Sequence record: MK327935.1
From: Escherichia phage vB_EcoM_G2494
Length of the DNA: 64,000 nt
Direction: 5' to 3' (one strand)
Shown: piece after piece, positions 11,198 to 59,492 of the stretch
Position numbering within the stretch: the stretch's first letter is position 1
Layout: each line of letters starts with the position of its first letter
The notes under the pieces: model-generated
What the model saw: only the letters and a program-made list of their open reading frames with translations
Told to the model about the DNA's origin: nothing
Database searches by the model: none
Made by a program: the position numbers and the translations under genes

Positions 11198-11220
11198 TTT
11201 AAACCTCCCATATAACAGAA

Positions 11221-11250
11221 AACGGGGCTAGTATAAAACTAGTCCCCGTT
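11221..11250 (-). terminator. hairpin terminator after alt
   Basis: 12-bp stem AACGGGGCTAGT/ACTAGTCCCCGTT, loop ATAAA. Confidence 0.5.
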
Positions 11251-11275
11251 TGAGTCAACCATTATTTCTTAAAAA

Positions 11276-13327: not shown

Positions 13328-13369
13328 TTTATATCCTCTAGTTGATAACCTATAAACCTATATTTATGA

Positions 13370-13399
13370 AAACGGGGCTTAACGCCCCCTTTTTATTAT
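13370..13399. terminator. hairpin GGGGCTTAACGCCCC with flanking T-run
   Basis: 5-bp GC stem plus CTTTTTATTAT; same hairpin recurs at 17933-17947. Confidence 0.4.
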
Positions 13400-13608
13400 A
13401 ATGCACCATCGAGCAATTGCTCTAAGGTGTATCCTGAATAGTCTTTTTCAATCAGGATATATTTTCCTACTCGTTTAATACAACCGCGCATTTCAACGTA
13501 TTCTGCGTAGTTGATGGTACGAGTTGTTCCATCTTCCAGTAATGCAGTACCGATTTCGTTAATGCGGTCATAAGTTACGTCGGTAATGATGATTTCGATG
13601 TTAGCCAT
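13396..13608 (-). CDS. hypothetical early protein (70 aa)
   Basis: ORF with RBS, own promoter cassette upstream. Confidence 0.55.
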   Translation of the reverse strand: MANIEIIITDVTYDRINEIGTALLEDGTTRTINYAEYVEMRGCIKRVGKYILIEKDYSGYTLEQLLDGAL

Positions 13609-13644
13609 TTGATACTCCTTAGTAGTTCGTTTCTGTATGTGTGT

Positions 13645-13673
13645 ATTATGATATACACCCTCTGTTATGTCAA
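13645..13673 (-). promoter_or_regulatory. sigma70-like early promoter (TTGACA-17-CATAAT)
   Basis: minus-strand TTGACA at 13673-13668, 17-bp spacer, CATAAT at 13650-13645. Confidence 0.6.
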
Positions 13674-13679
13674 CAACTT

Positions 13680-13859
13680 TTAGAACATTTTTGAAATTAA
13701 TTCTGCTTTGATTTCGCAGAGAACATCTAAAGATTTCTCGTCACCCGCTTTTGCTGCTTCTGCTTGCATTTTTGAAATGGCTTCAATCTCAGTGCAATTA
13801 TAAGCCGCTTGAACTTTAGCGATTGCGAGGATTGCCGATTCGATGGTTAAGTGTTTTAT
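13680..13859 (-). pseudogene. small ORF (~59 codons) with ATA in the start-codon position (decayed start or AUA initiation)
   Basis: cassette RBS GGAGAATCAAAC followed by ATA where paralogous cassettes have ATG; first in-frame ATG leaves only 29 codons. Confidence 0.35.
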
Positions 13860-13891
13860 GTTTGATTCTCCTTTCGTTTCGGTATGTGTGT

Positions 13892-13920
13892 ATTATAGGG
13901 GATCGATGATCCCCTGTCAA
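13892..13920 (-). promoter_or_regulatory. sigma70-like early promoter with palindromic spacer
   Basis: TTGACA, spacer GGGGATCATCGATCCCC (17 bp, inverted repeat), TATAAT. Confidence 0.65.
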
Positions 13921-13928
13921 CAACTTTT

Positions 13929-14447
13929 TTAGTTATTTTTTAATTGCTCATCTTGCAATAGGGCAATCACATGCTGGCGATGTTCTTCCGATTGAGGCAC
14001 ACCGAAAAAGTTTGTTTTGTAGAAATACTCTAATCGGTCTTCTCGTGTGCTCTCTTCCATCATGATCGCGGGTAGTCCGAGATTTCGGAAACGTCGCTTT
14101 TCTGCTGGCGTAAAATCACTGTAATACATCATAGAATCATCATTACCAGCAATGCTAAACTCATCCTTCATGAAGGAGAATATTGCGTTTAAACGCTGTT
14201 TACCGTCCACGATTTCGATCTCATAGCGAGAGCCATCATCAATCTTAGCCATTGCGATAGCACCAACCGGAAAATCATTAATCAGGTTTTCGATAAACAT
14301 ACGTTTGTTTTCGGTGTCCCATACTAAAGGACGCTGATAATCTGGGTTCATGTTGATATAGCCATCTTCTAACCATGCATCATAAACAGAGATGACAAAG
14401 TTTTTAGTATTGGTATAGTAACGGCGTTTAGGCGTTAAACGGTTCAT
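13929..14447 (-). CDS. DUF262 / ParB-like (GmrS-like N-terminal domain) protein
   Basis: NPDYQRPLVW and VDGKQRL motifs; ATG at 14447 with AGGAG RBS (ORF track start 14483 over-extends). Confidence 0.65.
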   Translation of the reverse strand: MNRLTPKRRYYTNTKNFVISVYDAWLEDGYINMNPDYQRPLVWDTENKRMFIENLINDFPVGAIAMAKIDDGSRYEIEIVDGKQRLNAIFSFMKDEFSIAGNDDSMMYYSDFTPAEKRRFRNLGLPAIMMEESTREDRLEYFYKTNFFGVPQSEEHRQHVIALLQDEQLKNN

Positions 14448-14448
14448 G

Positions 14449-14778
14449 TTATAGTCTCCTGAATGGATCATCACGTAAATCAATATCTTTTAAGAACTCA
14501 TCCCATGAATGGCGGATATTGTTCTTAATTCTCCAGATAAGAGCAGGGATTGAACGCTCTCCCATCTGGAAGTATGGATCATATGATCCGTATGCCCAAT
14601 ATGCTACTACAATTCCACAATCAGCGCAATAGTATTCTATTTCACTTGCTGGCGACAAAAGTCCATCAATATGATCGGTGATCTTGCTTTCGATGTTATG
14701 GCTATGACAATCAGGGCAACGGATGCAATGACCTTGTTTATCGTAATTTGATGTTAGTGAATACTTAAACAATCTCAT
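14449..14778 (-). CDS. Zn-ribbon protein
   Basis: CIRCPDCHSH...YYCADCG (two CxxC pairs). Confidence 0.55.
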   Translation of the reverse strand: MRLFKYSLTSNYDKQGHCIRCPDCHSHNIESKITDHIDGLLSPASEIEYYCADCGIVVAYWAYGSYDPYFQMGERSIPALIWRIKNNIRHSWDEFLKDIDLRDDPFRRL

Positions 14779-15494
14779 TATAGATCCTTATTTGCTTCAA
14801 ATACTGCCTTTGCGAATCCTCGCGGGGTAAGTGACCTTATAGTCTTTGTTTTCGTTCCTTTCCCGCCTAGCTTAGAATGCTGTTTACTGTACCCTTTATT
14901 AATCTGCAACGGTTTCTTTTCTGGCATTATAAAGCCTTGTCCGGTCCATAAGCAAGTCTTTTTTGGGTACATATCACGGGCGGCAATATACTCAGGAAAC
15001 GTAGGATGCTTATCATCTTCCGGCAAATAACCGCCATATTCCCACGGATGGAACATATAATCAGGCTTACGCCACATGCTAGAGATAACGCTTACAGGAT
15101 TCTCTATCATGTAGGGAACTCCTAGCCATTCACCCAAATAAGCGGTTATTTTGGCTGCCCTTACATCATGAACTTGAATCAATGGTCCTTGTTCTCGTTT
15201 CTTTCGTTCAAAGTGCGCAGCGCCACTAACAGCTAAATTGGTGCATGGTGGGAATGCAAAGATAATATCCGGTTTCCCCCATTCAAGGTCCATTGCTCTT
15301 TCTAGCCAGTTAAAATCAATCCATGTGTTTACATAGGTAATGTTTGGATGTTCAAATCTGGTATTATACTTTTTGTATGTTCCGTGGTCGCCATCGTCAG
15401 CATTAAAGCAGATCACCTTATGACCTGCTTTAGCCCATTCTAACCCCATTATCCCCGATCCGTCAAAGTTACAGAATATTAATTTTTGTTTCAT
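14778..15494 (-). CDS. DNA cytosine-5 methyltransferase-like protein
   Basis: FDGSG (motif I-like), FPPCT (PC motif IV), IENP (ENV motif VI-like); 238 aa. Confidence 0.45.
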   Translation of the reverse strand: MKQKLIFCNFDGSGIMGLEWAKAGHKVICFNADDGDHGTYKKYNTRFEHPNITYVNTWIDFNWLERAMDLEWGKPDIIFAFPPCTNLAVSGAAHFERKKREQGPLIQVHDVRAAKITAYLGEWLGVPYMIENPVSVISSMWRKPDYMFHPWEYGGYLPEDDKHPTFPEYIAARDMYPKKTCLWTGQGFIMPEKKPLQINKGYSKQHSKLGGKGTKTKTIRSLTPRGFAKAVFEANKDL

Positions 15495-15736
15495 ATACGC
15501 CCCTTTAATCCAACACAGATTTTAGAAGGTTCTTTGCCGTGCCACATTAAGTAAAGTCCGTTAATGCGGCCTTGTTTTGTATATGATTCTTTTCTGATCT
15601 TCTTATAGTGTCGTGCTTCCTCAGCCGATTGTTTAGAATACCAATCATAAAGGAAGAGGCACAAAGGCCACCCATTAGCGGCCTTAATGCAGTTATTAAG
15701 AAATTCCTTATTGCGTTTAATTAATTTTCTTTTCAC
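15491..15736 (-). CDS. hypothetical early protein (81 aa)
   Basis: ORF overlapping neighbours in operon. Confidence 0.5.
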   Translation of the reverse strand: MKRKLIKRNKEFLNNCIKAANGWPLCLFLYDWYSKQSAEEARHYKKIRKESYTKQGRINGLYLMWHGKEPSKICVGLKGRI

Positions 15737-15984
15737 GCTGCCCCCATTGGTTTGATAGTAACAGAATCTAAAAGACCTTTGTTAGCCAGTTCGCGGCAAG
15801 TTTTCAGATCCGCAACTTCCCAGCCAGCCGCAATCAGGTTATCAATGAGGCTGTTAGCAACTTCTTCGCTCATGAAAGAGCACTGTTTGCCGATGGTGTA
15901 GCGTACACGCTGTAATTTCAGTTTACGGAAGCCTTTAACGTTCAGGTCTTTAGCGATTTTCTTTGCGGTTTCGATGTTAGCCAT
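15733..15984 (-). CDS. hypothetical early protein (83 aa)
   Basis: ORF behind promoter cassette; N-terminus MANIE shared with 13396-13608 gene. Confidence 0.55.
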   Translation of the reverse strand: MANIETAKKIAKDLNVKGFRKLKLQRVRYTIGKQCSFMSEEVANSLIDNLIAAGWEVADLKTCRELANKGLLDSVTIKPMGAA

Positions 15985-16024
15985 TGTTTGATTCTCCTAA
16001 GTGGTATCTCGTCTTGATGGTTGT

Positions 16025-16053
16025 ATTGTAGGGGAGTTATCCTCCCCTGTCAA
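16025..16053 (-). promoter_or_regulatory. sigma70-like early promoter
   Basis: TTGACA, spacer GGGGAGGATAACTCCCC, TACAAT. Confidence 0.55.
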
Positions 16054-16067
16054 CACTTTTTATAAAA

Positions 16068-16235
16068 TTATTTGTTAATTTCCGGTGCGTTGCTTGGATA
16101 GTAACCTTCTTTAACACCCAGGTATTTCGCAACCATCCCTACAATCTTCTGTGCTACTACAATGTCAAATTTCAGATAATCTTCGCCGTGGGTTTCAATG
16201 ATATATGCTTCACATGCTGCTTTAGTCTCGAACAT
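16068..16235 (-). CDS. small early protein (55 aa), copy 1 of duplicated gene
   Basis: ATG with cassette RBS; about 85 percent nt identity by eye to 19861-20028. Confidence 0.55.
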   Translation of the reverse strand: MFETKAACEAYIIETHGEDYLKFDIVVAQKIVGMVAKYLGVKEGYYPSNAPEINK

Positions 16236-16268
16236 TTTGATTCTCCTATTTCGTTTCGTTATGTGTGT

Positions 16269-16297
16269 ATTATAGGGGATCTCCCGATCCCCGTCAA
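16269..16297 (-). promoter_or_regulatory. sigma70-like early promoter
   Basis: TTGACG, 17-bp palindromic spacer, TATAAT. Confidence 0.55.
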
Positions 16298-16310
16298 CAA
16301 CTTTTTAAAA

Positions 16311-16784
16311 TTATTTGCACCAAATTCGAATGATTTCGTCTCGTTCAAATTTTTGCCAGATTACTCGGTCGCCCGCTGCCATAATCCTGACAAATCCAGT
16401 TATATTTCCGGTGTACTTGCTTTTAGTTTCTGCATCATATTCAAAGAATGGAGCTTTAAGATCGCTAAACTCATCTTTTCCCACAAACTTCATAACATGA
16501 CGGTGTGCGTAATATTCGCTTCTTAGTGTTGTTGTGATAGTTCCGTCATCATTTGATTTCAGATGCAATTCGGCATCTTCATAAAGACTTGCATCTCGTT
16601 GTTTACTTTCGATACCATCATTATATGTTGATTTGGTTGCACTCCAACATTGATATGTCTTATCTACATTTTCGATCTTTTCCTGTGTCATGTCAAAAAG
16701 CGGCGCAACCTTTTTCTTAGCCGCGTGCGCAACGTTGGTCATAGACAGTGCCGCAACAACCGCAATAGCAATAATTTTCTTCAT
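16311..16784 (-). CDS. secreted/periplasmic protein (157 aa)
   Basis: N-terminal signal peptide MKKIIAIAVVAALSMTNVAHA. Confidence 0.6.
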   Translation of the reverse strand: MKKIIAIAVVAALSMTNVAHAAKKKVAPLFDMTQEKIENVDKTYQCWSATKSTYNDGIESKQRDASLYEDAELHLKSNDDGTITTTLRSEYYAHRHVMKFVGKDEFSDLKAPFFEYDAETKSKYTGNITGFVRIMAAGDRVIWQKFERDEIIRIWCK

Positions 16785-16845
16785 AATATCATCTCCTTTG
16801 GTTTATATGGCGGGAGTATCTTAGCAATACTCCCTTAATACTATA

Positions 16846-17127
16846 TTATTCGTGATTAGTTTCGATGTTGTGCATTTTGCACCAGTTCAGCCAATCGCCC
16901 AGATCTTGATAGTTGATGCTTTTATCTGCTGCCATCGTTTTTGTCTTGATACCCATATGTGCGTTATGAGTAAGCATTTTTACAGTGAACTCAATTTTAT
17001 CACCTTTAGCTTTAACATCAACCAGTTTGGTCCACTGGCTACCAGCGCCGCGAATGTTCATACCAACGATGTTTCCGATGTATGCTTCTTTGTTTTTCAG
17101 GATTTCGGTTGCTTTGATGAATTTCAT
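16846..17127 (-). CDS. hypothetical early protein (93 aa)
   Basis: ORF with cassette RBS and promoter. Confidence 0.55.
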   Translation of the reverse strand: MKFIKATEILKNKEAYIGNIVGMNIRGAGSQWTKLVDVKAKGDKIEFTVKMLTHNAHMGIKTKTMAADKSINYQDLGDWLNWCKMHNIETNHE

Positions 17128-17160
17128 TTTTGATTCTCCAGTTCGTTTCGGTATGGGTGT

Positions 17161-17189
17161 ATTATGCTATGTTCTTACTTTGGTGTCAA
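17161..17189 (-). promoter_or_regulatory. sigma70-like early promoter
   Basis: TTGACA-17-CATAAT. Confidence 0.55.
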
Positions 17190-17197
17190 CAACTTTT

Positions 17198-17467
17198 TTA
17201 GATATTTTCAGAAATAAATTTTAAAACTTGACGTAAATGTTTCTCGTCTTTGATAGTCGCCGGAAGTTCTTCTTTTACTTCCTGTGCAAGATAGATATTT
17301 CCGTTCCAAGTGAAAGATCCGTCTTCGTTTACGCGATAGCTGAACATCCACTCGCAATCATTTTCGATTTCATATACACACAGAAGGGTGTAATCTTCAA
17401 AGCTATTGATTTCAAGGTCGAAGCCGTGACGTTTTGCAAAGTTGGTAGTGGTTTTAGTCAGTGCCAT
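17198..17467 (-). CDS. hypothetical early protein (89 aa)
   Basis: ORF; 32-bp upstream leader identical to that of 15733-15984. Confidence 0.55.
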   Translation of the reverse strand: MALTKTTTNFAKRHGFDLEINSFEDYTLLCVYEIENDCEWMFSYRVNEDGSFTWNGNIYLAQEVKEELPATIKDEKHLRQVLKFISENI

Positions 17468-17507
17468 TGTTTGATTCTCCTAAGTGGTATCTCGTTTCGA
17501 TGTGTGT

Positions 17508-17536
17508 ATTATGCTATAGGCGTGATCTGGTGTCAA
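17508..17536 (-). promoter_or_regulatory. sigma70-like early promoter
   Basis: TTGACA-17-CATAAT. Confidence 0.55.
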
Positions 17537-17559
17537 TGCCTTTTTTAAAATTTTATGCA

Positions 17560-17592
17560 ATAAAAAAGCCGACACTAAGGTCGGCTAATAAA
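17560..17592 (-). terminator. rho-independent terminator
   Basis: stem GCCGAC/GTCGGC flanked by A6 and T-run. Confidence 0.55.
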
Positions 17593-17593
17593 A

Positions 17594-17902
17594 TCATTTA
17601 GACAAATAATCATTCTGTGCAATCCGGTCGGCGTATGCTGGTGTTATGTCAATCGCCAGCACTTTAACGCGTGCTTTCTTGCGACCTGGGTTTTCTCGTA
17701 ACCAGTGCTCATGACCGTGAACATTTTTATACTGCGATGCTTCTTCGAAGGTACGGATCGGACCTGGGTAATCAGCGTAAAGGATCTCTAGATCTTCGGT
17801 GATGTAAAAATATACATCGTAATTGCTGTTCTCTAGCTTAAGCAGAGACTTTCGGAACATTGGGAGATTTTCGCGGGTAAATTCAAAGATATTATCTTTC
17901 AT
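17594..17902 (-). CDS. HxHW-motif small protein family member a
   Basis: YDVYFYITEDLEILYADY...HGHEHW...VLAIDI. Confidence 0.6.
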   Translation of the reverse strand: MKDNIFEFTRENLPMFRKSLLKLENSNYDVYFYITEDLEILYADYPGPIRTFEEASQYKNVHGHEHWLRENPGRKKARVKVLAIDITPAYADRIAQNDYLSK

Positions 17903-17926
17903 AGTATTATCCTCAATAGTTGGATG

Positions 17927-17950
17927 AAAAGGGGGGCTTAACGCCCCGTA
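17927..17950 (-). terminator. hairpin GGGGCTTAACGCCCC (copy 2)
   Basis: same stem-loop as 13374-13388; follows stop of 17953 gene. Confidence 0.4.
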
Positions 17951-17952
17951 TA

Positions 17953-18240
17953 TTAAAACAGTCCTTCCTGTACACCGTAGTAGAGTTCATCGCTGATAAT
18001 TTCATTAATGCGACGGTGTGCATATTCCTGATTTGCGAAGTTGTCAGCAAGTTCTACTTTAGTTTCGCCGTCATGAGTCCATTTAGTGATAACTTTACCA
18101 TCTGCAAATTTGAAGTTGAACTCTTTAGCTACCGCATCGCGTACCAGACGTGCAAACTTATTGTTGCGGATTGCATTGTCGGTTTCGTGTTCAGCGTGAG
18201 CGAATTTGTTAACTTTCAGAGTGATAGTAATGTATGCCAT
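17953..18240 (-). CDS. hypothetical early protein (95 aa), paralog of 21518-21829
   Basis: shared VAKEFNFKF / LAKEFNTKI segment. Confidence 0.55.
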   Translation of the reverse strand: MAYITITLKVNKFAHAEHETDNAIRNNKFARLVRDAVAKEFNFKFADGKVITKWTHDGETKVELADNFANQEYAHRRINEIISDELYYGVQEGLF

Positions 18241-18286
18241 AATTTGATTCTCCTAGTTAGAAAGTGTATCTCGTTTCGATGGGTGT

Positions 18287-18315
18287 ATTATGCTATACAC
18301 CCGATCTTATGTCAA
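18287..18315 (-). promoter_or_regulatory. sigma70-like early promoter
   Basis: TTGACA-17-CATAAT. Confidence 0.55.
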
Positions 18316-18321
18316 CACTTT

Positions 18322-18600
18322 TTATAAAATAATTTTTTGATATTTTTCTATGATGTTTGTGTAGGTCACATCAACCGCGAGCACCGTTGCTTCGAATCCA
18401 CCGTTTAGCCAATGGCTATGATCGTGATCGTTAAAGAAACCGAGGCCAGTGCGAAGACCTTCTTTATATTCGGCGCGTACATTCAGTTTGTCGTCGATAA
18501 ACAGATAAAACCATGAATTTTTACTAGGATTGATGATACAACCTTTCAGATTAGGGAGAATATCACGACTAAGAATAAACTTATCACCTACTTTGAACAT
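18322..18600 (-). CDS. HxHW-motif family member b
   Basis: WFYLFIDDKLNV...DHDHSHW...VLAVDV; ATG at 18600 with GAGGA RBS. Confidence 0.6.
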   Translation of the reverse strand: MFKVGDKFILSRDILPNLKGCIINPSKNSWFYLFIDDKLNVRAEYKEGLRTGLGFFNDHDHSHWLNGGFEATVLAVDVTYTNIIEKYQKIIL

Positions 18601-18604
18601 AATA

Positions 18605-18925
18605 TTAGTCCTCACTTATAAGGTCAAACCAATTGTTTTTCGCATAATGCTTAATGCGTGCTTGATCTGCTTCCGCTGGTGATAGATTCCATGCGATCAC
18701 TACAACTTCTGACGCATCGTCATCCGTTTCTGATATCCAATGATTGTGATTCATACAGTTATTTGCTATCGCGTGAGCAAATGATCTCATTACTGGAGAC
18801 GTATAATCATAGTAACGGATTTTCAGATTTTCATCAACGTACAAATAGATCGTATAAGGTTTATATTCAGTAACCAGTAACAGACAGTTACGCAATTCTG
18901 GGAAAATCTTTTTAGTTAATTTCAT
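18605..18925 (-). CDS. HxHW-motif family member c
   Basis: YTIYLYVDENL...NHNHW...VVIAWN. Confidence 0.6.
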   Translation of the reverse strand: MKLTKKIFPELRNCLLLVTEYKPYTIYLYVDENLKIRYYDYTSPVMRSFAHAIANNCMNHNHWISETDDDASEVVVIAWNLSPAEADQARIKHYAKNNWFDLISED

Positions 18926-19127
18926 AGTCTATTTCTCCGTAATACACGGTAATCCATTTTTCTTCATACTTTGTATCTTTCCAACACACAATCCCGTTTA
19001 CTGTGCAATCTTTGGAATTGACGAATGATTCATATTGTTCTGCGTCTTCCATCATTGCATGAGCGGTCTTTTCATCGAATATATCGCAGATCGCTTTATA
19101 TGCTCAATAATCTTTAAATTTGCTCAT
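18912..19127 (-). pseudogene. paralog of 19130-19339 interrupted by in-frame TGA at codon 8
   Basis: MSKFKDY-TGA-AYKAI...; TGA at 19106-19104 where intact copy has AAA; frame otherwise open for 71 codons. Confidence 0.45.
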
Positions 19128-19129
19128 AA

Positions 19130-19339
19130 TTAAGACCACTCAAGAGTTTTTGAAAACACATCTATCCATTGTTGAGTATATGCGGTTTCTTTCCATGATA
19201 CAATACCAGTAGAATAATGGTTTTTGTTTCCAGAAAAGGACGGGCATTTTGATGCGTCTTCCATCATCTTTTCGGCGAACTCTGGTTCGTATACTCGCAA
19301 GATCTGTTGATATGCTTTGTAGTCTTTAAATTTGCTCAT
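19130..19339 (-). CDS. hypothetical early protein (69 aa)
   Basis: intact copy MSKFKDYKAYQQ... Confidence 0.55.
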   Translation of the reverse strand: MSKFKDYKAYQQILRVYEPEFAEKMMEDASKCPSFSGNKNHYSTGIVSWKETAYTQQWIDVFSKTLEWS

Positions 19340-19604
19340 AATCGTTAACTACCTTATCAGCTTCTTTTATTGTTTTTACATCAACTGCGATAACCCGTAA
19401 AGGTTCGTCATGGTTCCACCAATGATCGTGAATATCGGCTTGTGATTTATCACCAAAGGAATCACGAATATCATTTTTACATTTATAGCTAATGTGACCT
19501 TCATAGTCAACATAAAGGTAATTATCGAAAATCGGCGTTTTTAAGATCATACCGAAAAATCTTTCTTTGTGTGTCTTATCCAGTGTTGCAGTAATTCGCA
19601 TCAT
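19326..19604 (-). CDS. HxHW-motif family member d
   Basis: YLYVDYEGHISY...HDHWW...VIAVDV. Confidence 0.6.
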   Translation of the reverse strand: MMRITATLDKTHKERFFGMILKTPIFDNYLYVDYEGHISYKCKNDIRDSFGDKSQADIHDHWWNHDEPLRVIAVDVKTIKEADKVVNDYEQI

Positions 19605-19616
19605 AATATATTCCTC

Positions 19617-19796
19617 TTAGAAAGGGATGGTCATTTCTTGAGCTTGTACATTCTCGTTAGGATTAAACTTCATCCAACCGATATTGTCTACCAGCATATG
19701 CACATTTTTATCATATCCTACGTGAGTAGTCAACACTAAATGTGATTTACCTTCAACGATGATTTCCATGTACTTCTGAACTTCGATAGCTTTCAT
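19617..19796 (-). CDS. small early protein (59 aa)
   Basis: ATG with cassette RBS GGAGAATCAAA; not in ORF track. Confidence 0.5.
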   Translation of the reverse strand: MKAIEVQKYMEIIVEGKSHLVLTTHVGYDKNVHMLVDNIGWMKFNPNENVQAQEMTIPF

Positions 19797-19860
19797 TTTG
19801 ATTCTCCGTTTGTTGTCTTGATGGGAGTATCTTACTACTCCCTTTAATCATTGTCAACGA

Positions 19861-20028
19861 TTATTTGTTAATTTCCGGTGCGTTGCTTGGATAGTAGCCT
19901 TCTTTAACACCCAGATATTTTGCAACCATTCCGGTGATCTTCTGTGCTACTACGATATCGAATTTCAGGTAGTCTTCACCGTGGTTTGCTACAATGTATG
20001 CTTCGCATTCTGCTTTAGTCTGGAACAT
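19861..20028 (-). CDS. small early protein (55 aa), copy 2 of duplicated gene
   Basis: ORF track 86-aa call over-extends through promoter; true ATG at 20028 behind cassette RBS. Confidence 0.55.
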   Translation of the reverse strand: MFQTKAECEAYIVANHGEDYLKFDIVVAQKITGMVAKYLGVKEGYYPSNAPEINK

Positions 20029-20062
20029 TTTTGATTCTCCTATATCTCGTTGGTATGTGTGT

Positions 20063-20091
20063 AGTATAGGGGATCGGTGATCCCCTGTCAA
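20063..20091 (-). promoter_or_regulatory. sigma70-like early promoter
   Basis: TTGACA, palindromic 17-bp spacer GGGGATCACCGATCCCC, TATACT. Confidence 0.55.
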
Positions 20092-20101
20092 CAACTTTTT
20101 T

Positions 20102-20410
20102 TTATTCTTCATCTTCATCATTATCTTTATATGCGTACTTCATAAATTTGTCTGCTACTTCGTCCGCGTTTTCAGGTTCTACGTCTGACGCTAGGACAAC
20201 AGCTAGTTCGGTTTTGTCGTTTCCATCATACCAATGATTATGAGTGTCGTTTTCTTCGATATAAAACGAATCAGTTGGAGTTGTGCGACAATATACGTCT
20301 AAATTCCCATCGATATAAAAGATCCAATCCGAATACAAAATGATTGTTTTAGCAAGATTTTTATTGTCTCTCACAAAAGGTTCTGAGACAAATAGCTTAG
20401 TTTGTTCCAT
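20102..20410 (-). CDS. HxHW-motif family member e
   Basis: WIFYIDGNLDVY...HNHWY...AVVLASDV; ATG at 20410 with GAGGAAAA RBS. Confidence 0.6.
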   Translation of the reverse strand: MEQTKLFVSEPFVRDNKNLAKTIILYSDWIFYIDGNLDVYCRTTPTDSFYIEENDTHNHWYDGNDKTELAVVLASDVEPENADEVADKFMKYAYKDNDEDEE

Positions 20411-20426
20411 AACATTTTCCTCAAAA

Positions 20427-20618
20427 TTATACAGCTTCGTAAACTTCCCAATGTCCAGCGCCAACACGCTTAACGAAAAGGTTTTCTTTGATGTTATTCA
20501 TAAACGTCTGGATGGATTTAATGCGGTTTGAAGGTTTCCAGTCTTCGTTGGAATTGCGTCGATACATCATAACATTACCAGTTCGCTTATATTCAGCAAC
20601 CATTTTAAGACCATACAT
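20427..20618 (-). CDS. hypothetical protein (63 aa)
   Basis: ORF fills gap between family members e and f; no clear RBS. Confidence 0.4.
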   Translation of the reverse strand: MYGLKMVAEYKRTGNVMMYRRNSNEDWKPSNRIKSIQTFMNNIKENLFVKRVGAGHWEVYEAV

Positions 20619-20669
20619 AATATTATCATCAATTTGTGGGAGAGTATTACCCTCCCGATTATTGTTATA

Positions 20670-20978
20670 CTACATTACGCAAAATGGCGTGTCAATACTT
20701 CTTTTTGCTGTTCCGCTAAGATTCTCGATCTCTCCTGGCATAACATCAACCGCCAGAACTTCTACAACATCCTCTGATCCTAACCAGTGAGTATGACCTT
20801 TGTAGAACTTGATATCCCATTTATCGCTATCGCTAGCCCACCACACATCACCGTCTATAAAGTTGATGTAAAGCACACTACGACACATTGAATTAGTTAC
20901 TTTCAATACTGCGCCTTTCATCTCTTCCACGGTATGGTCTTCCATTTTGAAGACCTCGCCTACCTTAACTTTTGCCAT
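20670..20978 (-). CDS. HxHW-motif family member f
   Basis: LYINFIDGDVWW...HTHWL...VLAVDV; start coupled to stop of member g (TAACATG). Confidence 0.6.
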   Translation of the reverse strand: MAKVKVGEVFKMEDHTVEEMKGAVLKVTNSMCRSVLYINFIDGDVWWASDSDKWDIKFYKGHTHWLGSEDVVEVLAVDVMPGEIENLSGTAKRSIDTPFCVM

Positions 20979-20979
20979 G

Positions 20980-21246
20980 TTACATGTTCCGAATATGTTT
21001 AGATGCATCTTCCAGTTCGTCGATAGTGACACTGTGAGCCAGTAAGTGTACTGGTTGTGGTTCTTCACCTTCCATAGTATTGATCAGATGACCGTTTCCT
21101 GGGTGGAATGTATCGTTGCCGTTCCAAATAGCATACACATCATCTTCTGTTACGTAGATAATAAGTCCAATCGGTGATTCTGGTAATTGAAAAATTTTAC
21201 CCACTGCATCTTTGCGATTGTCTACGATATCTTTGACTGTCTTCAT
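20980..21246 (-). CDS. HxHW-family-related protein g (divergent)
   Basis: LIIYVTEDDVYAIW...HPGNGHL...HLLAHSV. Confidence 0.5.
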   Translation of the reverse strand: MKTVKDIVDNRKDAVGKIFQLPESPIGLIIYVTEDDVYAIWNGNDTFHPGNGHLINTMEGEEPQPVHLLAHSVTIDELEDASKHIRNM

Positions 21247-21265
21247 TTAGTTACCTCTCTTTAAA

Positions 21266-21445
21266 TTACATCACAATCACGCCAGCCGTAGAAAGTTGAT
21301 GTTTCAACTGAGCATTTTCTGCTACTGTCAAATCAATAATTTCTTGTGACGCTGCAATCATATAGCCATTGGTGATATTGTTTTGCATCAGTTCAATGGT
21401 TTCTTCGTTGTAGCGGATTTTAGCGATGATTTCGTTGAAGTTCAT
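21266..21445 (-). CDS. small early protein (59 aa)
   Basis: ATG behind cassette RBS; not in ORF track. Confidence 0.5.
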   Translation of the reverse strand: MNFNEIIAKIRYNEETIELMQNNITNGYMIAASQEIIDLTVAENAQLKHQLSTAGVIVM

Positions 21446-21479
21446 AATTGATTCTCCTAGTTCGTTTCGGTATGTGTGT

Positions 21480-21509
21480 ATTATAGGGGAGTTTAACCTC
21501 CCCTGTCAA
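21480..21509 (-). promoter_or_regulatory. sigma70-like early promoter
   Basis: TTGACA, palindromic spacer (18 bp), TATAAT. Confidence 0.5.
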
Positions 21510-21517
21510 CAACTTTT

Positions 21518-21829
21518 TTAAAGTTTTTCCATGATAACGGTCATAATTACATCTTCTGCGCGAGCGGTCAGATTATCAGCGTCAGCATGTGGGCGGTTGG
21601 TTGTTACAGAGATAACACCGTTGCGCACTGGTTTGATATTGATATCAAGATGATCCGCGAAACGTTCGCCAGTTACAGAATGAATTTTGGTGTTAAATTC
21701 TTTTGCCAGTGCCTTGCGAACTTCACGAATCAGGATAGCGTTTTTCAGTTGGTTCTCCGCGCTCATGGTCTTCTGGGTGTTCATGGTTCCGTCGAAGTCA
21801 ATCATTGGCAGCGTTACGATGTATTTCAT
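21518..21829 (-). CDS. hypothetical early protein (103 aa), paralog of 17953-18240
   Basis: shared LAKEFNTKI segment. Confidence 0.55.
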   Translation of the reverse strand: MKYIVTLPMIDFDGTMNTQKTMSAENQLKNAILIREVRKALAKEFNTKIHSVTGERFADHLDINIKPVRNGVISVTTNRPHADADNLTARAEDVIMTVIMEKL

Positions 21830-21874
21830 TTTTGATTCTCCGTTTAAGAAAGTGTGTTTCGTTTTGATGTGTGT

Positions 21875-21903
21875 AGTATAGGGGATACGTGATCCCCTGT
21901 CAA
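21875..21903 (-). promoter_or_regulatory. sigma70-like early promoter
   Basis: TTGACA, spacer GGGGATCACGTATCCCC, TATACT. Confidence 0.55.
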
Positions 21904-21996
21904 CAACTTTTTTGAATTATTTTTTCATGAGCTTAATGGCTTCTTCCATAGCCAGCACATTTCGATAGTTAGGGTATCGTGTTAGATCGTCATACA

Positions 21997-22028
21997 TTCG
22001 CTTAAGGGTGGATTCGCTTAAGGGTGGA
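21997..22028. repeat. perfect 16-bp tandem duplication (TTCGCTTAAGGGTGGA x2)
   Basis: two adjacent identical 16-mers at 21997-22012 and 22013-22028; creates the stop of the 22002-22262 ORF. Confidence 0.9.
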
Positions 22029-22262
22029 AACTTCCTCAAACTCTGGGTTTTCTAGATACAGTTGAACAAATTGTTTCTCTACCATCTCGGCTTTTAGCTT
22101 GTCTGCTTGTTCCTGTTCATATGATTTAGTTGGACCCAACACCAACAAAATGATAAAGGTGATCAACGATAGGAGAACATAACCGATAACGCTACGGTTT
22201 AAACGGCTTGCGTACATGCCTACCAGGAAAACAAAAAGGATATAGATAAACAGAAAGAACAT
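22002..22262 (-). CDS. small membrane protein (86 aa), apparently C-terminally truncated
   Basis: two hydrophobic helices; stop generated by 16-bp duplication, old frame stays open 26 further codons. Confidence 0.5.
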   Translation of the reverse strand: MFFLFIYILFVFLVGMYASRLNRSVIGYVLLSLITFIILLVLGPTKSYEQEQADKLKAEMVEKQFVQLYLENPEFEEVSTLKRIHP

Positions 22263-22269
22263 ATAATGG

Positions 22270-22743
22270 TTACTCCTTATTTTCGCGCTCGTACTTTTCG
22301 AAATAAAATTCTACTGGCTGGTCGTGGATTGACAGTAAGCCAAAGCGTTTAGCCGCTCGCAATCCCATATTGCGCTGAATGTACTTCTGGAAGTTCTCGC
22401 GTATACACTTACGCCAGTATTCTAAGCCCATACAGCTTTTGTAAAGATTGCATTGCACACAAGCCGGATTCATATTATCAAGTATATCGTGCTCCGGTTT
22501 ATGCATTCCTACAACCTTATACTTCCACGATCCATCATCATTACGGGCAATTCGTCCATTTTCATCATAGACTACCTTTGAGCGTCGCAATACTGGTTTG
22601 ATGTGGTCTGCGTGCCATCGGTCCCCTAGTTCCTCGCCACAATAGGCACAACGCCCACCGTATTTCATTTTCAGGATCTGGCGTTGCTCTTTCTTTGACA
22701 ATTTTTTAGGTTTAGGGGCTTTCGCCCCTTCATTATCACACAT
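22270..22743 (-). CDS. HNH endonuclease (157 aa)
   Basis: CAYCGEEL...WHADHIKP...CVQCN HNH zinc-finger motif. Confidence 0.65.
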   Translation of the reverse strand: MCDNEGAKAPKPKKLSKKEQRQILKMKYGGRCAYCGEELGDRWHADHIKPVLRRSKVVYDENGRIARNDDGSWKYKVVGMHKPEHDILDNMNPACVQCNLYKSCMGLEYWRKCIRENFQKYIQRNMGLRAAKRFGLLSIHDQPVEFYFEKYERENKE

Positions 22744-24238: not shown

Positions 24239-24698
24239 CTCGTTTTGTTAAACGTTCACGAATATCATTGAGGATACTACAAAATTCCGATTCAGTCAAT
24301 ATAGTCTTTAACGGATCTGTTCCACCTATACTATGACGCAATTTCTTATTTCCTGTAGCGAGTAATGCTTTACAAAATTCTGGGTTATTCCGTGCCATCG
24401 TAACAAATGCCAGATGTACCAGTCTGTAATAATGCTCACTCATTCGATGAATCGGGCGACCCTGAAAATATAACATGTGATTCTCAGTCTTTTCAGTTCT
24501 TCCGGTTCTTTTTGCTTTGCCACCGTGCATCAAAAAGATTTCTCTTTGTCTCTGAGGGTTCTTAAATCTTAGCCCCTGTAAAAATCCTTCTGTGCTGTTA
24601 ATATCGCAACCAAATAGACGGAATGGTCTTTTATTGAAGTTACTCAATTCACCAGATGGATAAGGTCCACCCGCATAGATATCAATTTCAGAAGTCAT
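24219..24698 (-). CDS. NADAR / YbiA-like domain protein
   Basis: IYAGGPYPSGELSNF, STEGFLQGLRF segments resemble the E. coli YbiA NADAR fold. Confidence 0.6.
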   Translation of the reverse strand: MTSEIDIYAGGPYPSGELSNFNKRPFRLFGCDINSTEGFLQGLRFKNPQRQREIFLMHGGKAKRTGRTEKTENHMLYFQGRPIHRMSEHYYRLVHLAFVTMARNNPEFCKALLATGNKKLRHSIGGTDPLKTILTESEFCSILNDIRERLTKRGENVNS

Positions 24699-30267: not shown

Positions 30268-30666
30268 TTAACTTTCCAGAATATCGCGAGCTTCGTTACG
30301 CTCCTTGATGATTTTCAGGACAAATTCCAGTTTTTCTTTGTTTAGTGTTCCGTTTTCCATTGCTTCTTTGACGGTAAACACTCCGCCACCTTGCCCGTAT
30401 ACAGTGACAGTGATTTCACCTAACATCGTGGTATGAAAACCTCCAATTTTCGGTGATTCGAAAGAAACAATTACCTCGCGGACAGTATTACCGTCGTTGA
30501 TTTCTGAGAGGGTAATGTCGTTTTTGTAGGCGGTTGCTTTAACCATACGGATCAGCATAGTCTGATCTGGGGAGATGGTCATTTTGTCCATTGCATGTTG
30601 CAATGCAGCGTAACCGAAAACTTTAACGAAGTCCAGAACATCTTTGCGAGTTTGAAATTTAATCAT
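30268..30666 (-). CDS. hypothetical protein (132 aa)
   Basis: ORF with cassette promoter upstream. Confidence 0.5.
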   Translation of the reverse strand: MIKFQTRKDVLDFVKVFGYAALQHAMDKMTISPDQTMLIRMVKATAYKNDITLSEINDGNTVREVIVSFESPKIGGFHTTMLGEITVTVYGQGGGVFTVKEAMENGTLNKEKLEFVLKIIKERNEARDILES

Positions 30667-30736
30667 CTTGATACTCCTTAGTAAGTTAGTTTCGTTTCGA
30701 TGGGGGTATATTACTACCCCCGTTTCATGCTGTCAA

Positions 30737-30955
30737 CTACTTTTTAATGACAAGTTCGAATTTTGCTACCTTGCGTCCTCGTTTATTGAAAGCAACCCAC
30801 GGACGGTTTTCAATGTAGAACAATTCTTCGCCAATAATGAATACTGGCTGATTGTAAAGGCGACCCATCAGGTCACGCTGGCGAATGGTAGTAGATTCGT
30901 ATACTTCGCCTACTACAAAGTGCTTGCTGATAGAGTCGGTGCAAGTAAATTTCAT
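30737..30955 (-). CDS. hypothetical protein (72 aa), VAKFE-family
   Basis: C-terminus VAKFELVIKK resembles 59493-59699 protein. Confidence 0.5.
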   Translation of the reverse strand: MKFTCTDSISKHFVVGEVYESTTIRQRDLMGRLYNQPVFIIGEELFYIENRPWVAFNKRGRKVAKFELVIKK

Positions 30956-31024
30956 TTTGATTCTCCTTTGTTTCGTTTCGATGGGGGTATATTACTACCC
31001 CCGTTATTCAGTGTCAACTACTTT

Positions 31025-31243
31025 TTACTTGTTGTATTCATTCCACCATTGGGTTAGCTTATCAATTATTTTTGTGTTTCTATCCAACTTCTCCCACCGT
31101 TTTCTAGGGTTTATCAACCGGAATAGGTAAGGTGTACTTGTTAAGTGGACTCGGTCAATGCAGTGATTGATGTACTGCTTTTCAATTCTAAGTTTCATCT
31201 TTTTACGATGAAAATATGCAATGACTTGTTCTTCTGTTTCCAT
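31025..31243 (-). CDS. hypothetical protein (72 aa)
   Basis: ORF. Confidence 0.45.
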   Translation of the reverse strand: METEEQVIAYFHRKKMKLRIEKQYINHCIDRVHLTSTPYLFRLINPRKRWEKLDRNTKIIDKLTQWWNEYNK

Positions 31244-31343
31244 ATGTTCCTCCGTTTAGATGTGCGTATTATGCTATGGCAAGATCAGATTGTCAACACC
31301 CAATAACAAAAAAGTCGCCACTATGGGCGACTTTGAACAAACA

Positions 31344-34064: not shown

Positions 34065-34095
34065 AATAAAATCCTCACTTGTTTTTGATGGTTGT

Positions 34096-34124
34096 ATTAT
34101 AGCGGGGATTTCTCCCCGCGTCAA
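34096..34124 (-). promoter_or_regulatory. sigma70-like early promoter
   Basis: TTGACG, palindromic spacer CGGGGAGAAATCCCCGC, TATAAT. Confidence 0.55.
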
Positions 34125-34132
34125 CACTTATT

Positions 34133-58987: not shown

Positions 58988-59149
58988 CTATTTTAAATTA
59001 TTTTCGACCTTCATCCATTCCGCGTATTCTTGCGCAGCTACTTTCGGATTTAGTCCGTCTTCGTACATTGCATCAAGTAATTCTTCGTCGGTGGGCTTAT
59101 ACCCTAGATAAGCCTCCATCTGATTTTTCCAAATTTTATAACAGTTCAT
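58988..59149 (-). CDS. small early protein (53 aa)
   Basis: ATG at 59149 with GGTGA RBS 5 nt after upstream stop. Confidence 0.45.
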   Translation of the reverse strand: MNCYKIWKNQMEAYLGYKPTDEELLDAMYEDGLNPKVAAQEYAEWMKVENNLK

Positions 59150-59426: not shown

Positions 59427-59492
59427 CTTTGATTCTCCTTTTGTTTGGAATGGGAGTATATTACTACTCCCATTATTCAGTGTCAATAGATT

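Follow-up and report, generated by a model that had tools for sequence, protein, structure and literature searches.

Promoter-early stem-loops (PeSLs) were defined at the locus that RB49 and phi1 have in common, through PeSL193/192, 206/205 and 211/210 and the ORFans 192 and 210 (Arbiol, Comeau, Kutateladze, Adamia and Krisch 2010, Genome Biol Evol 2:140; PMC2839356). As described in the sections of that report drawn on here, a PeSL consists of an AT-rich stretch containing the upstream stop codon, a sigma-70 promoter, a stem-loop, a Shine-Dalgarno (SD) sequence and an ATG, with the stem-loop in the promoter spacer, over the -10 or, in one subclass, downstream of the -10. The same sections document promoter and terminator activity experimentally, with the hairpin of the cassette upstream of ORF210 assayed as a terminator and one PeSL hairpin reducing read-through in a reporter as strongly as rrnB T1, and report PeSL-bounded mini-circles with cassette junctions in both RB49 and phi1. 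The PeSL-like motifs of T4/PST and KVP40/nt-1, repeats of hyperplastic regions that combine promoter and terminator and are exchange points between otherwise unrelated genes, share the concept but have different sequences (Comeau, Arbiol and Krisch 2014; PMC4122927).

The window, a 64,000-nucleotide stretch of Escherichia phage vB_EcoM_G2494 (MK327935.1), matches 63 phage records, the top one 95.5% identical, and the source phage is a Krischvirus, a member of the RB49/phi1/GEC-3S group of T4-like coliphages. Between alt and the DNA ligase gene, positions 13396-22262 form a hyperplastic region with ~27 gene-like units on the minus strand, collinear with, and 92-98% identical to, ORF185-ORF211 of RB49 and ORF185-212 of phi1, the locus (HPR3, ORF185-211) of the published PeSLs. 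Promoters are annotated at the same positions in the GEC-3S record. The repeated cassettes of this region are very probably, judging from their sequence, PeSLs of the type found in RB49-group phages of the genus Krischvirus; they belong to the RB49-type sequence family, unlike the T4/PST and KVP40/nt-1 motifs. Their architecture and stem-loop placements equal those described for RB49 and phi1, several cassette cores are identical to those of RB49, and the ORF192 and ORF210/211 indels are the same as those reported (PMC2839356). There is no essential difference: the cassettes are real but were described in 2010, in the same phage group and genome region, and the original prediction, which likened them to the promoter-early stem-loops of T4-type phages, was a correct rediscovery rather than a new finding. 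The window represents a different isolate with its own combination of modules, in which ORF192 is present, as in RB49, ORF195/196 is absent, as in phi1, and an extra 88-aa gene (21246-20980) is common to G2248 and FL20.

Read on the minus strand, a cassette begins with an AT-rich stretch that usually holds the stop codon of the upstream gene and continues as AAAAAGTTG-TTGACA, a 17-18 nt spacer, TATAAT, TATACT or CATAAT, a short conserved leader (ACACACAT..GAAACGA) and GGAGAATCAA(A) followed by ATG. The promoter is near-consensus sigma-70, a Shine-Dalgarno block (GGAGAATCAAA) precedes the start codon of a small early gene, and most cassettes have a G+C-rich hairpin within the promoter spacer or overlapping the -10. 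A scan for the promoter consensus across 13396-22262 identified 10 sites that agree with the hexamers at 11 or 12 of the 12 positions, every one on the minus strand, which is the gene strand, and within a cassette, with 17-18 nt spacing and a start codon 60-90 nt downstream. A looser pattern applied to the whole window gave 30 matches where 4.9 are expected, a number reached in none of 100 shuffles, and an nhmmer profile search recovered 22 cassettes (E<1e-3), none of them on the plus strand. A reiterated promoter-leader-RBS cassette is thus confirmed, but not for each of ~35 genes, as first proposed: full cassettes precede 11 of the ~27 genes and variant elements 2 more (Table 1), and the remaining 14 are operon members, tightly packed or overlapping, with only their own ribosome-binding site. 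The leader identity noted between positions 15981 and 17464 is exact and extends over 33 bp rather than 32 (17495-17463 and 16012-15980), and the gene starts at 13608 and 15984, both predicted to encode MANIE, do share ATGGCTAACATCGAAA. Overall, overstatement in the original prediction is limited to the counts and to where one class of palindrome lies.

Table 1. Cassettes and terminators of the window, every one on the minus strand (numbered genes are homologs of RB49 ORFs)
Element	Position	TTGAC start	Downstream gene or context	Search result	Hairpin	Fold
PeSL	21825..21922	21903	ORF210 (21829-21518)	nhmmer E=1.1e-17; TTGACA-17-TATACT, 11/12	GGGGATCACGTATCCCC, in promoter spacer	
PeSL	21440..21533	21509	ORF209 (21445-21266)	nhmmer E=2.7e-18; promoter 12/12	GGGGAGGTTAAACTCCCC, in spacer	-14.4 kcal/mol, z=-2.7
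Variant PeSL	20619..20706		ORF207 (20618-20427)	promoter scan 10/12, TTGACA-17-TAGTAT	GGGAGGGTAATACTCTCCC, ~20656-20638, downstream of -10	-18.4 kcal/mol, z=-2.8
PeSL	20023..20109	20091	ORF205, 55 aa (20028-19861)	nhmmer E=3.8e-20	GGGGATCACCGATCCCC	z=-3.07
PeSL	19792..19874	19857	ORF204 (19796-19617)	nhmmer E=1.1e-14	GGGAGTA-GTAAGA-TACTCCC, overlaps -10 TAAGAT	-15.7 kcal/mol, z=-5.8
PeSL	18237..18334	18315	ORF198 (18240-17953)	nhmmer E=3.3e-17	GGGTGTAT-AGCATA-ATACACCC, overlaps -10 CATAAT	z=-3.5
Cassette	17466..17560	17536	ORF194 (17467-17198)	nhmmer E=1.3e-17; promoter, leader and SD	no stable hairpin	z=-1.7
Cassette	17123..17213	17189	ORF193 (17127-16846)	nhmmer E=2.2e-16	none	z=-0.06
Variant/degenerate PeSL	16785..16845		ORF192 (16784-16311)	TGnTAAGAT-type -10, no -35	GGGAGTATTGCTAAGATACTCCC	-14.8 kcal/mol, z=-3.7
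PeSL	16232..16321	16297	ORF191, 55 aa (16235-16068)	nhmmer E=2.2e-19	GGGGATCGGGAGATCCCC	z=-3.2
PeSL	15981..16073	16053	ORF190 (15984-15733)	nhmmer E=2.8e-16	GGGGAGGATAACTCCCC	-19.4 kcal/mol, z=-5.95
PeSL	13857..13937	13920	ORF186 (13859-13680)	nhmmer E=1.6e-18; promoter 12/12	GGGGATCATCGATCCCC	z=-3.06
PeSL	13604..13694	13673	ORF185 (13608-13396)	nhmmer E=9.5e-16	weakened, GTGTAT/ATACAC	z=-1.05
Canonical intrinsic terminator	17567..17586		3' of ORF197		hairpin + T-run	
Canonical terminators	17947-17933, 13388-13374			terminator scan		
Second cluster, 5 cassettes	59783-59695, 59509-59421, 59008-58923, 58727-58637, 58497-58430		matches RB49 ORF260-265, adjoins gene 52	nhmmer E 1.7e-12 to 9e-17		
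3 cassettes	31300-31252, 31030-30951, 30758-30663		matches RB49 ORF225-228	profile search		
Isolated cassette promoter	34079..34140			nhmmer E=9.7e-07; loose-pattern match	palindromic spacer TTGACGCGGGGAGAAATCCCCGCTATAAT	
2 weaker copies	39387-39317, 38990-38940			nhmmer E=1.6e-07 and 8e-04		

Eight of the 11 full cassettes have a stable hairpin (7-8 bp), one hairpin is weakened and two cassettes have none; together with both variants, the eight have 7-9 bp stems with z values of -1.4 to -6, and for most copies only 0-5 of 200 shuffled controls fold as well. Several hairpins are, as anticipated, perfect inverted repeats within the spacer, but the GGGAGTA...TACTCCC palindrome, also placed in the 17-bp spacer by the original prediction, overlaps the -10 hexamer and the bases that follow, as does GGGTGTAT...ATACACCC. 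At the ORF198 site, orthologs have the compensatory stem GGGGATAT/ATATCCCC, which is two compensatory pairs from GGGTGTAT/ATACACCC, with pairing in 96% of cells versus 31-62% after sliding of the partner; in FL20 the two forms are combined in a hybrid. GGGAGTA/TACTCCC and GGGGGTA/TACCCCC exhibit the same pattern, with a G.U intermediate between them in RB49. Judged from the aligned copies, compensatory change demonstrably maintains the stems; the covariation support consists of few independent events. At 7 of 11 sites the spacers of orthologous cassettes differ by 13-29%, whereas the neighbouring leader and coding sequences differ by 0-5%. The ORF209 cassette has seven different spacer alleles across 12 orthologs, the loop of the ORF205 hairpin is ACC in some orthologs and the reverse complement, GGT, in others, and where the ORF185 hairpin is weakened in the window, relatives have the full GGGTGTAT/ATACACCC stem. 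The ORF193 spacer is unchanged in 12 genomes, and the promoter core at the ORF210 site is identical to that of RB49 at the same position. A small set of hairpin alleles turns up repeatedly, at one site or another, as expected from exchange between cassettes. The concentration of turnover in the hairpin spacer when orthologous sites are compared, loop inversions included, is a small addition to the available text of Arbiol et al. (2010).

Perfect palindromes between the -35 and -10 are in the classic position of an operator, in most cassettes of class A and several of class C GATC occupies spacer positions 10-13, and cassette cores contain 12 GATC in 660 nt (18 per kb) compared with 5.3 per kb elsewhere. 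The palindromes might then bind a dimeric phage or host protein, for example a repressor that shuts off early promoters, or be Dam-methylation switches, rather than form hairpins. We regard this as improbable, as the stems vary (GATC, GAGG, GAGTA, GTGTAT and GATAT types) with complementarity retained, and the loops are free to vary and in some cases inverted, as is characteristic of a structure rather than of a sequence recognized by a single protein. The G.U-type intermediates, moreover, pair only on the sense strand, the hairpin shifts position relative to the promoter between subclasses, and genome-wide GATC is neither avoided nor unusual. Like canonical rho-independent terminators, hairpin-forming cassettes end a transcription unit with a G+C-rich hairpin, but the hairpins are followed by TATAAT or ACACAC instead of a T-run, and a terminator scan of the region called none of them. 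It did identify three canonical terminators separate from the cassette hairpins, one directly upstream of the hairpin-less ORF194 cassette. Termination or attenuation by the PeSL hairpins rests on the lacZ assay of one element, as given in the published account (PMC2839356).

Gene gain and loss were evaluated by comparing the window with 12 relatives (11 for region 13396-22262 itself). Nine of the 11 gene-scale indels found touch a cassette, consistent with the predicted coincidence of breakpoints and cassettes, and at five the junction shows a chimeric cassette or cassette homology over 37-97 bp; at four, one end lies at the AT-rich edge of a single cassette, with an overlap of at most 15 bp. 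The ORF186 module is missing from Sf20 and JK32, with a 42 bp overlap and a junction that joins an ORF186-type promoter to the ORF185 leader. (The start codon of the ORF186 homolog is ATA in this window.) ORF191 is missing from JK32, in which the remaining chimera has an ORF191-type promoter half and the ORF190 leader. The ORF195/196 module of RB49, Sf20, TB34 and JK32 is flanked by a 97-bp repeat with a counterpart at 17489-17585 in the window. RB49 lacks 59460-59695, with a 37 bp overlap and a chimeric cassette at the site, and has one extra cassette and small gene, flanked by a 95-bp repeat, in the counterpart of 30663..31300. Based on the chimeras and the 37-97 bp overlaps at these five junctions, crossovers demonstrably occur within cassettes, and their position, between the -10 and the SD, agrees with that in the mini-circles sequenced for RB49 and phi1 (PMC2839356).

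Indel placement itself carries little weight: as a cassette is present at 13 of the 27 gene boundaries in the region, the frequency with which indels touch one is not statistically above that expected for indels that respect boundaries, and the case for cassette recombination comes from the chimeric junctions. It is possible, if doubtful, that the cassettes are simply strong early promoters with an optimised translation-initiation region, alike through selection and tandem duplication of genes with their promoters, with recombination an unselected by-product rather than the work of a 'shuffling device', and indels located at cassettes only because viable indels fall between genes. Two indels (20979-21243 and 15494-15719) are unrelated to cassettes, and duplication does account for part of the similarity, as the leaders of paralogous genes are themselves paralogous, both in the 55-aa pair (16235 and 20028) and in ORF198 and ORF210, which have the long ACACTTTCT leader. 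This explanation is countered by the five junctions and by the mini-circles found experimentally, as the published account has it, in RB49 and phi1; it also contests the purpose of the cassettes and leaves the mechanism uncontested. Modular shuffling through cassettes is supported. The cassettes are also short, repeated, internally palindromic and linked to gene gain and loss, and the 529 bp ORF192 module (16316-16844), which of 12 genomes only the window and RB49 possess, lies between copies of a 6-bp direct repeat, AATAAT, as might be expected of mobile elements of MITE-like or homing type, autonomous or not, inserted by a dedicated enzyme rather than by general homologous recombination. This is very improbable given that all 22 copies share one orientation and register relative to the downstream start codon, that junctions are homologous crossovers in shared sequence, that there are no terminal inverted repeats besides the promoter hairpin, that no transposase was seen among the proteins of the region and that Rfam has no family matching the cassettes.

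In the scheme that we favor, recombination between cassettes, unmodified host RNA polymerase would read the sigma-70 promoters immediately after infection and so drive small, non-essential early genes. A hairpin located upstream of its cassette's own transcription start would be transcribed only by read-through from upstream, and could then act as an attenuator or terminator that insulates each small transcription unit. Homologous recombination is very active in these phages and, given near-identical stretches of ~80-100 bp that recur in the same direction at intervals of a few hundred bases, would be expected to cross between cassettes, deleting, duplicating or inserting gene-plus-cassette modules and leaving a functional chimeric cassette at the junction. 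Promoter strength, hairpin termination and mini-circle formation are presumed for the present phage by analogy with homologous or identical elements.

T4 early promoters (Durand et al. 2006; PMC1702504) resemble those of the cassettes in being of sigma-70 type with an A/T-rich upstream element but, unlike them, are generally without a spacer hairpin. A second small addition to the available text of Arbiol et al. (2010) is the agreement of the cassette SD block, GGAGAAUCAAA, with 10 of the 11 positions of the RegB/S1 consensus GGAGRAYARAA (PMC1702504); position 8 is a C where an A is strongly preferred. A divergent RegB with cleavage activity in vivo is encoded by RB49, and the GGAG block may double as a RegB cleavage site.

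Elsewhere in the window, the profile search recovered all of the recurrences listed originally, at 30.7, 31.0, 34.1 and 58.4-59.8 kb, the last of these within a hyperplastic region, and added three, at 31.3, 38.99 and 39.39 kb. In the 58.4-59.8 kb cluster, FL04 has an additional 503 bp at 58992-59006. Two of the three cassettes within 30663..31300 have the compensatory stem GGGGGTA/TACCCCC.

Window 13396-22262, flanked by alt (11276-13327) and the HNH/ligase genes, is a hyperplastic region collinear with ORF185-ORF211 of RB49 and ORF185-ORF212 of phi1, as placed from the annotated regions of 11 relatives. A megablast comparison with phage records returned 63 matches, all T4-like phages of the genus Krischvirus (coliphages or Shigella/Salmonella phages, RB49, phi1, GEC-3S and JSE among them), with the top match 95.5% identical over 87% coverage. 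The cassettes that precede many of the minus-strand genes in this region are promoter-early stem-loops (PeSLs), already known elements that were described from this locus in the same genus, and promoters at cassette positions are already annotated in the GEC-3S GenBank record. As described in the 2010 comparison of RB49 with phi1 (Arbiol et al., PMC2839356), there are ~50 PeSL motifs per genome, mostly in hyperplastic regions upstream of ORFans. Each has an AT-rich stretch, a sigma-70 consensus promoter, a stem-loop, a Shine-Dalgarno sequence (SD) and a start codon, the stem-loop taking one of five positions: within the spacer, over the -35, over the -10, or immediately before or after the promoter. 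The concept was extended in 2014 to T4/PST and KVP40/nt-1 (Comeau, Arbiol, Krisch, PMC4122927). The mechanism having been published in 2010 and 2014 for this phage group, its recognition here adds no new biology. The original prediction, that these are promoter-early stem-loops with a role in modular gene shuffling, was made from sequence only and turned out to be correct, as the motif and the locus are the same and there are cassette-bounded indels with chimeric junctions.

Alignment of the cassettes gives the consensus (T)AAAAAGTTG-TTGACA, a 17-18 nt spacer, TATAAT/TATACT/CATAAT, ACAC(A/C)CAT, a GAAACGA-rich leader, GGAGAATCAAA and ATG. As in a PeSL, an AT-rich stretch, (T)AAAAAGTTG, is conserved 5′ of the TTGACA, and contains stop codons (for example, at 21920, 20104 and 13931). 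Sigma-70 hexamers with 17 ± 1 nt spacing are present at 10 sites that match the consensus at 11-12 of 12 positions and at 3 that match at 10; all are on the gene strand and the ten best are all within cassettes. A looser promoter pattern has 30 matches, with 4.9 expected, a six-fold excess over shuffles. The ribosome-site block GGAGAATCAA, allowing at most one mismatch, occurs 19 times on the minus strand and never on the plus strand, with a promoter and leader before 17 of the 19, and in 17 cassettes GGAG(A/T)ATCA is followed 4-8 nt on by ATG. One cassette copy has ATA in place of this ATG. The gene concerned is the ORF186 homolog (start at window 13857-13859, minus strand; cassette at 13920); it has an ATG in all nine relatives that have the gene, and the remainder of its 59-codon frame is intact. 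Either the start codon has mutated, the gene is turning into a pseudogene, or the base was misread in sequencing.

Across the 64-kb window, a profile built from the cassettes identified 22 copies at E<1e-3, every one of them minus-strand. Eleven are within 13396-22262 and the rest at 30.7, 31.0, 31.3, 34.1, 38.99, 39.39 and 58.4-59.8 kb, so that the recurrences originally noted at 30.7, 31.0, 34.1 and 58.4-59.8 kb were all recovered. The copies cluster at 13.6-21.9, 30.7-31.3 and 58.4-59.8 kb, upstream of ORFans, with the downstream genes being hypothetical or belonging to PHROGs of unknown function. The cassettes are therefore real, but their number had been inflated: the original prediction had about 35 small genes, each with a cassette, whereas gene-by-gene inspection recognized ~27 gene-like units, 11 with a full cassette, two with variant elements (upstream of genes 20618 and 16784) and 14 that are operonic and have no cassette. 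The N-terminal sequence MANIE is indeed common to the genes at 13608 and 15984, and the leader reported as identical over 32 bp is identical, over 33 bp (17495-17463 and 16012-15980).

G+C-rich stems of 7-9 bp are present in 8 of the 11 full cassettes and in both variant elements; for most copies, an equally good fold is reached by only 0-5 of 200 dinucleotide shuffles (z down to -6). The hairpin is missing from two cassettes (17536 and 17189) and weakened in one (13673). The original description of palindromic spacers holds only in part, as GGGAGTA/TACTCCC overlaps the -10 and so falls outside the spacer proper, as does GGGTGTAT/ATACACCC. In orthologs of the cassettes upstream of ORF198 and ORF185, the stem is either GGGTGTAT/ATACACCC or GGGGATAT/ATATCCCC, forms that differ at two adjacent pairs with both arms changed; 96% of cells are paired as opposed to 31-62% with slid partners, although the number of independent compensatory events is small. 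FL20 has a hybrid of the two types of arm. Hairpins of the -10-overlapping class are GGGAGTA/TACTCCC or GGGGGTA/TACCCCC, with a G.U intermediate, GGGGGTA/TACTCCC, at one RB49 site. As such wobble intermediates pair solely on the sense strand, they lean weakly towards a role at the RNA level.

Stem sequences that vary between cassettes while pairing is retained favor a nucleic-acid structure over a protein operator, and the same variability disfavors a Dam methylation switch. GATC is 3.4-fold denser in cassette cores (18 per kb) than elsewhere (5.3 per kb), as a Dam switch would have it, but its genome-wide frequency is ordinary (346 observed, 334 expected). The enrichment in the cores probably reflects the shared ancestry of the cassettes, and GATC/Dam was dropped as a main explanation. 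GATC occupies spacer positions 10-13 in most cassettes with a hairpin in the spacer, and also in several that have no spacer hairpin.

The hairpins are upstream of the predicted start of the cassette's own transcript, and hence can act only on read-through transcripts. They have no T-run, and a scan for canonical intrinsic terminators called none of them on the gene strand, so that they were discarded as classical intrinsic terminators. Clear minus-strand terminators, with an all-G-C stem and a T-run, are present at 17586-17567, 17947-17933 and 13388-13374, none inside a cassette. The designation of the hairpins as attenuators or terminators thus rests on the published reporter assay. In PMC2839356, PeSL206/205, PeSL193/192 and PeSL211/210 of RB49/phi1 were assayed, PeSL206/205 having very strong promoter activity and the PeSL211/210 stem-loop terminating comparably to rrnB T1. 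These assayed elements are orthologs of window cassettes, and the core of RB49 PeSL211/210 is identical to the core at 21903. Searching 9.6 kb, both strands, against Rfam 15 at a permissive E-value identified no known RNA family; the sole match, to the snoRNA sR52, is sub-threshold and due to chance (21.9 bits, gathering score 50, E=0.44).

Evidence for recombination between cassettes comes from gene gain and loss. BLAST alignments of window 11000-24500 with 11 relatives were chained, and 57.5-60.6 kb and 30.0-31.8 kb were additionally compared with FL04 and RB49. Cassette-bounded indels, sought as a check on the original prediction, are present: 9 of 11 indels touch a cassette, and in 5 the junction has a chimeric cassette or overlapping homology of 37-97 bp. 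With cassettes at 13 of the 27 gene boundaries, however, this co-location is not significant by itself, and breakpoint enrichment was dropped as evidence; the case rests on the chimeric junctions and the long overlapping homology. The decisive signature emerged when the cassettes were tabulated by downstream gene. In genomes that lack ORF186, the ORF185 cassette has an ORF186-type promoter and hairpin fused to an ORF185-type leader, and in those that lack ORF191 the leader of the ORF190 cassette is its own but the promoter is of the ORF191 type. A chimeric cassette is also present in RB49, at the 59.5-kb junction. The crossovers map between the -10 and the SD, as they do in the sequenced mini-circles reported in PMC2839356, where inverse PCR detected circles closed by a PeSL-PeSL junction for ORFans 192 and 210. 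Chimeric junctions from a dozen genomes, rather than two as before, clearly make the evidence for cassette-to-cassette recombination reproducible. Duplication of plain strong promoters together with their genes explains part of the similarity between cassettes, as paralogous genes have paralogous leaders, but leaves the chimeric junctions unexplained. A MITE-like mobile element is likewise disfavored, by the uniform orientation and register of the cassettes, by the homologous junctions at indels, and by the absence of a transposase among 20 small proteins checked.

Cassette features, indels and paralogous genes, with window positions
Feature	Position	Detail
Indel inside cassette: ORF186 module	13650-13860	missing in Sf20, JK32; 42 bp overlapping homology
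Indel inside cassette: ORF191		missing in JK32
Indel inside cassette: ORF195/196 module	17489-17585 (97-bp flanking repeat)	+406 bp in RB49, Sf20, TB34, JK32
Indel inside cassette	59460-59695	missing in RB49; 37 bp overlap
Indel inside cassette: additional cassette and small gene in RB49	30655-30749 (95 bp flank)	
Indel, one end at cassette AT-rich edge: ORF192 module	16316-16844	only in window and RB49
Indel, one end at cassette AT-rich edge: ORF211	21925-22282	
Indel, one end at cassette AT-rich edge: ORF210+211	21536-22282	
Indel, one end at cassette AT-rich edge	58992-59006	+503 bp in FL04
Indel without cassette	20979-21243	
Indel without cassette	15494-15719	
Loop-orientation sites	21903, 21509, 20091, 13920	and orthologous sites in 11 relatives
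GATC in cassette cores (examples)	20082-20079, 17527-17524, 18306-18303	
RegB-like SD blocks (examples)	21841-21831, 20040-20030, 16246-16236	in all cassettes
Paralogs of ~90-106 aa	17594-17902, 18605-18925, 18322-18600, 20102-20410	also 19326-19604, 20670-20978

With modules exchanged in this way, PeSLs account for the combination, in T4-like phages, of a conserved core genome with rapid swapping of small accessory early genes, many of which are probably concerned with countering host defences and with taking over the host. A module carries its promoter, insulator and ribosome-binding site along with it, and its landing site is a harmless intergenic one.

Turnover is concentrated in the promoter spacer. 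At 7 of 11 sites, orthologous spacers have 13-29% pairwise divergence, as compared with 0-5% in the leader or first 60 coding bases at the same sites. A few hairpin alleles, with the loops ACC, GGT, GGGA and ATC and a GAGG..CTC stem, recur across sites. The ACC and GGT loops are exact reverse complements (GGGGATC-ACC-GATCCCC and GGGGATC-GGT-GATCCCC); among the 12 genomes, both orientations are present at 4 of 5 GATC-type sites, and loop orientation and the neighboring -10 variant are found in all combinations. GCC and GGC are a further pair of loops in opposite orientation. This pattern suggests frequent short-patch exchange (conversion) between cassettes, inversion of the hairpin loop, or both. 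The allele differences in 12 near-identical genomes, the exact loop inversions and the contrast between spacer and flank divergence led us also to consider that the spacer hairpin, more than a passive attenuator, actively turns PeSLs into hot spots of recombination, the cassette then being, with an SD cleavable by RegB, an integrated unit for expression, mRNA decay and recombination, a reading that we regard as improbable. A hairpin or cruciform would be extruded in the DNA and then be cut, or cause template switching, so starting exchanges; a phage junction-resolving endonuclease or replication forks would be the candidate agents.

The cassette SD consensus GGAGAAUCAAA (conserved block GGAGAATCAAA) conforms at 10 of 11 positions to GGAGRAYARAA, the single-stranded 11-nt target of RegB/S1 (PMC1702504); position 8 departs from it, with C in place of the strongly favored A. 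The RegB of RB49 is functional although divergent. Given this fit and a functional RegB, the early transcripts may come with RegB sites built in, and the cassette may also set the short lifetime of early mRNAs. A word search of PMC2839356 found neither RegB nor inversion nor compensatory change mentioned. Spacer turnover, loop inversion and the RegB match are refinements of a known system, not a new one.

When 20 of the small proteins were compared with Pfam and PHROGs, nearly all were of unknown function and none was a transposase or recombinase; the only domain matches were to a GmrSD_N/DUF262 domain and, sub-threshold, to a zinc ribbon. The genes at 13929-15736 (minus strand) form a cassette-driven operon with products of 83, 81, 238, 109 and 172 aa. 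The 238-aa protein is annotated as a DNA methyltransferase in relatives but has no Pfam match here, the 109-aa protein is zinc-ribbon-like and the 172-aa protein has the GmrSD_N/DUF262 domain, and the operon may have to do with anti-restriction or DNA modification. Its 81-aa gene is missing from G2248, JK32 and E26, through a 226-bp deletion that involves no cassette.

Two 55-aa paralogs 3.8 kb apart (window 16068-16235 and 19861-20028, minus strand; phrog_8009) are ~85% identical and have one GATC-type cassette each; they are a duplicated gene-plus-cassette module. Several genes of ~90-106 aa that lack cassettes appear to be diverged paralogs, with the motif H-W ... V-L-A-V/I-D-V close to the C-terminal end. 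Matches to phrog_9345 are strong for two of them and weak for two more, no function is known for any, and they look like a locally expanded ORFan family. Of the 12 genomes compared, only the window and RB49 have the ORF192 homolog (16311-16784, minus strand; 157 aa), which starts with the signal-peptide-like sequence MKKIIAIAVVAALSMTNVAHA, and the element upstream of the window copy has diverged from that of RB49 and lost its -35.

The ATA of the ORF186 homolog is one of three inactivating changes in accessory genes of this one 9-kb region. The second, at 19104-19127 (minus strand), is a nonsense mutation in an accessory gene, a paralog of the one for 69 aa at 19339-19130: the frame ends at a TGA directly after MSKFKDY, a codon that is CGA (Arg) in GEC-3S, phi1 and JK32, in which the gene is full-length (~71 aa). 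The third is a 16-bp tandem duplication (CCACCCTTAAGCGAAT twice) at ~21995-22026 (minus strand), inside ORF 22262-22002, that is not present in RB49, Sf20, E26 or G2248. It causes a frameshift in the ORF211 homolog, which is predicted to be a membrane protein and is thereby reduced from 114 to 86 aa.
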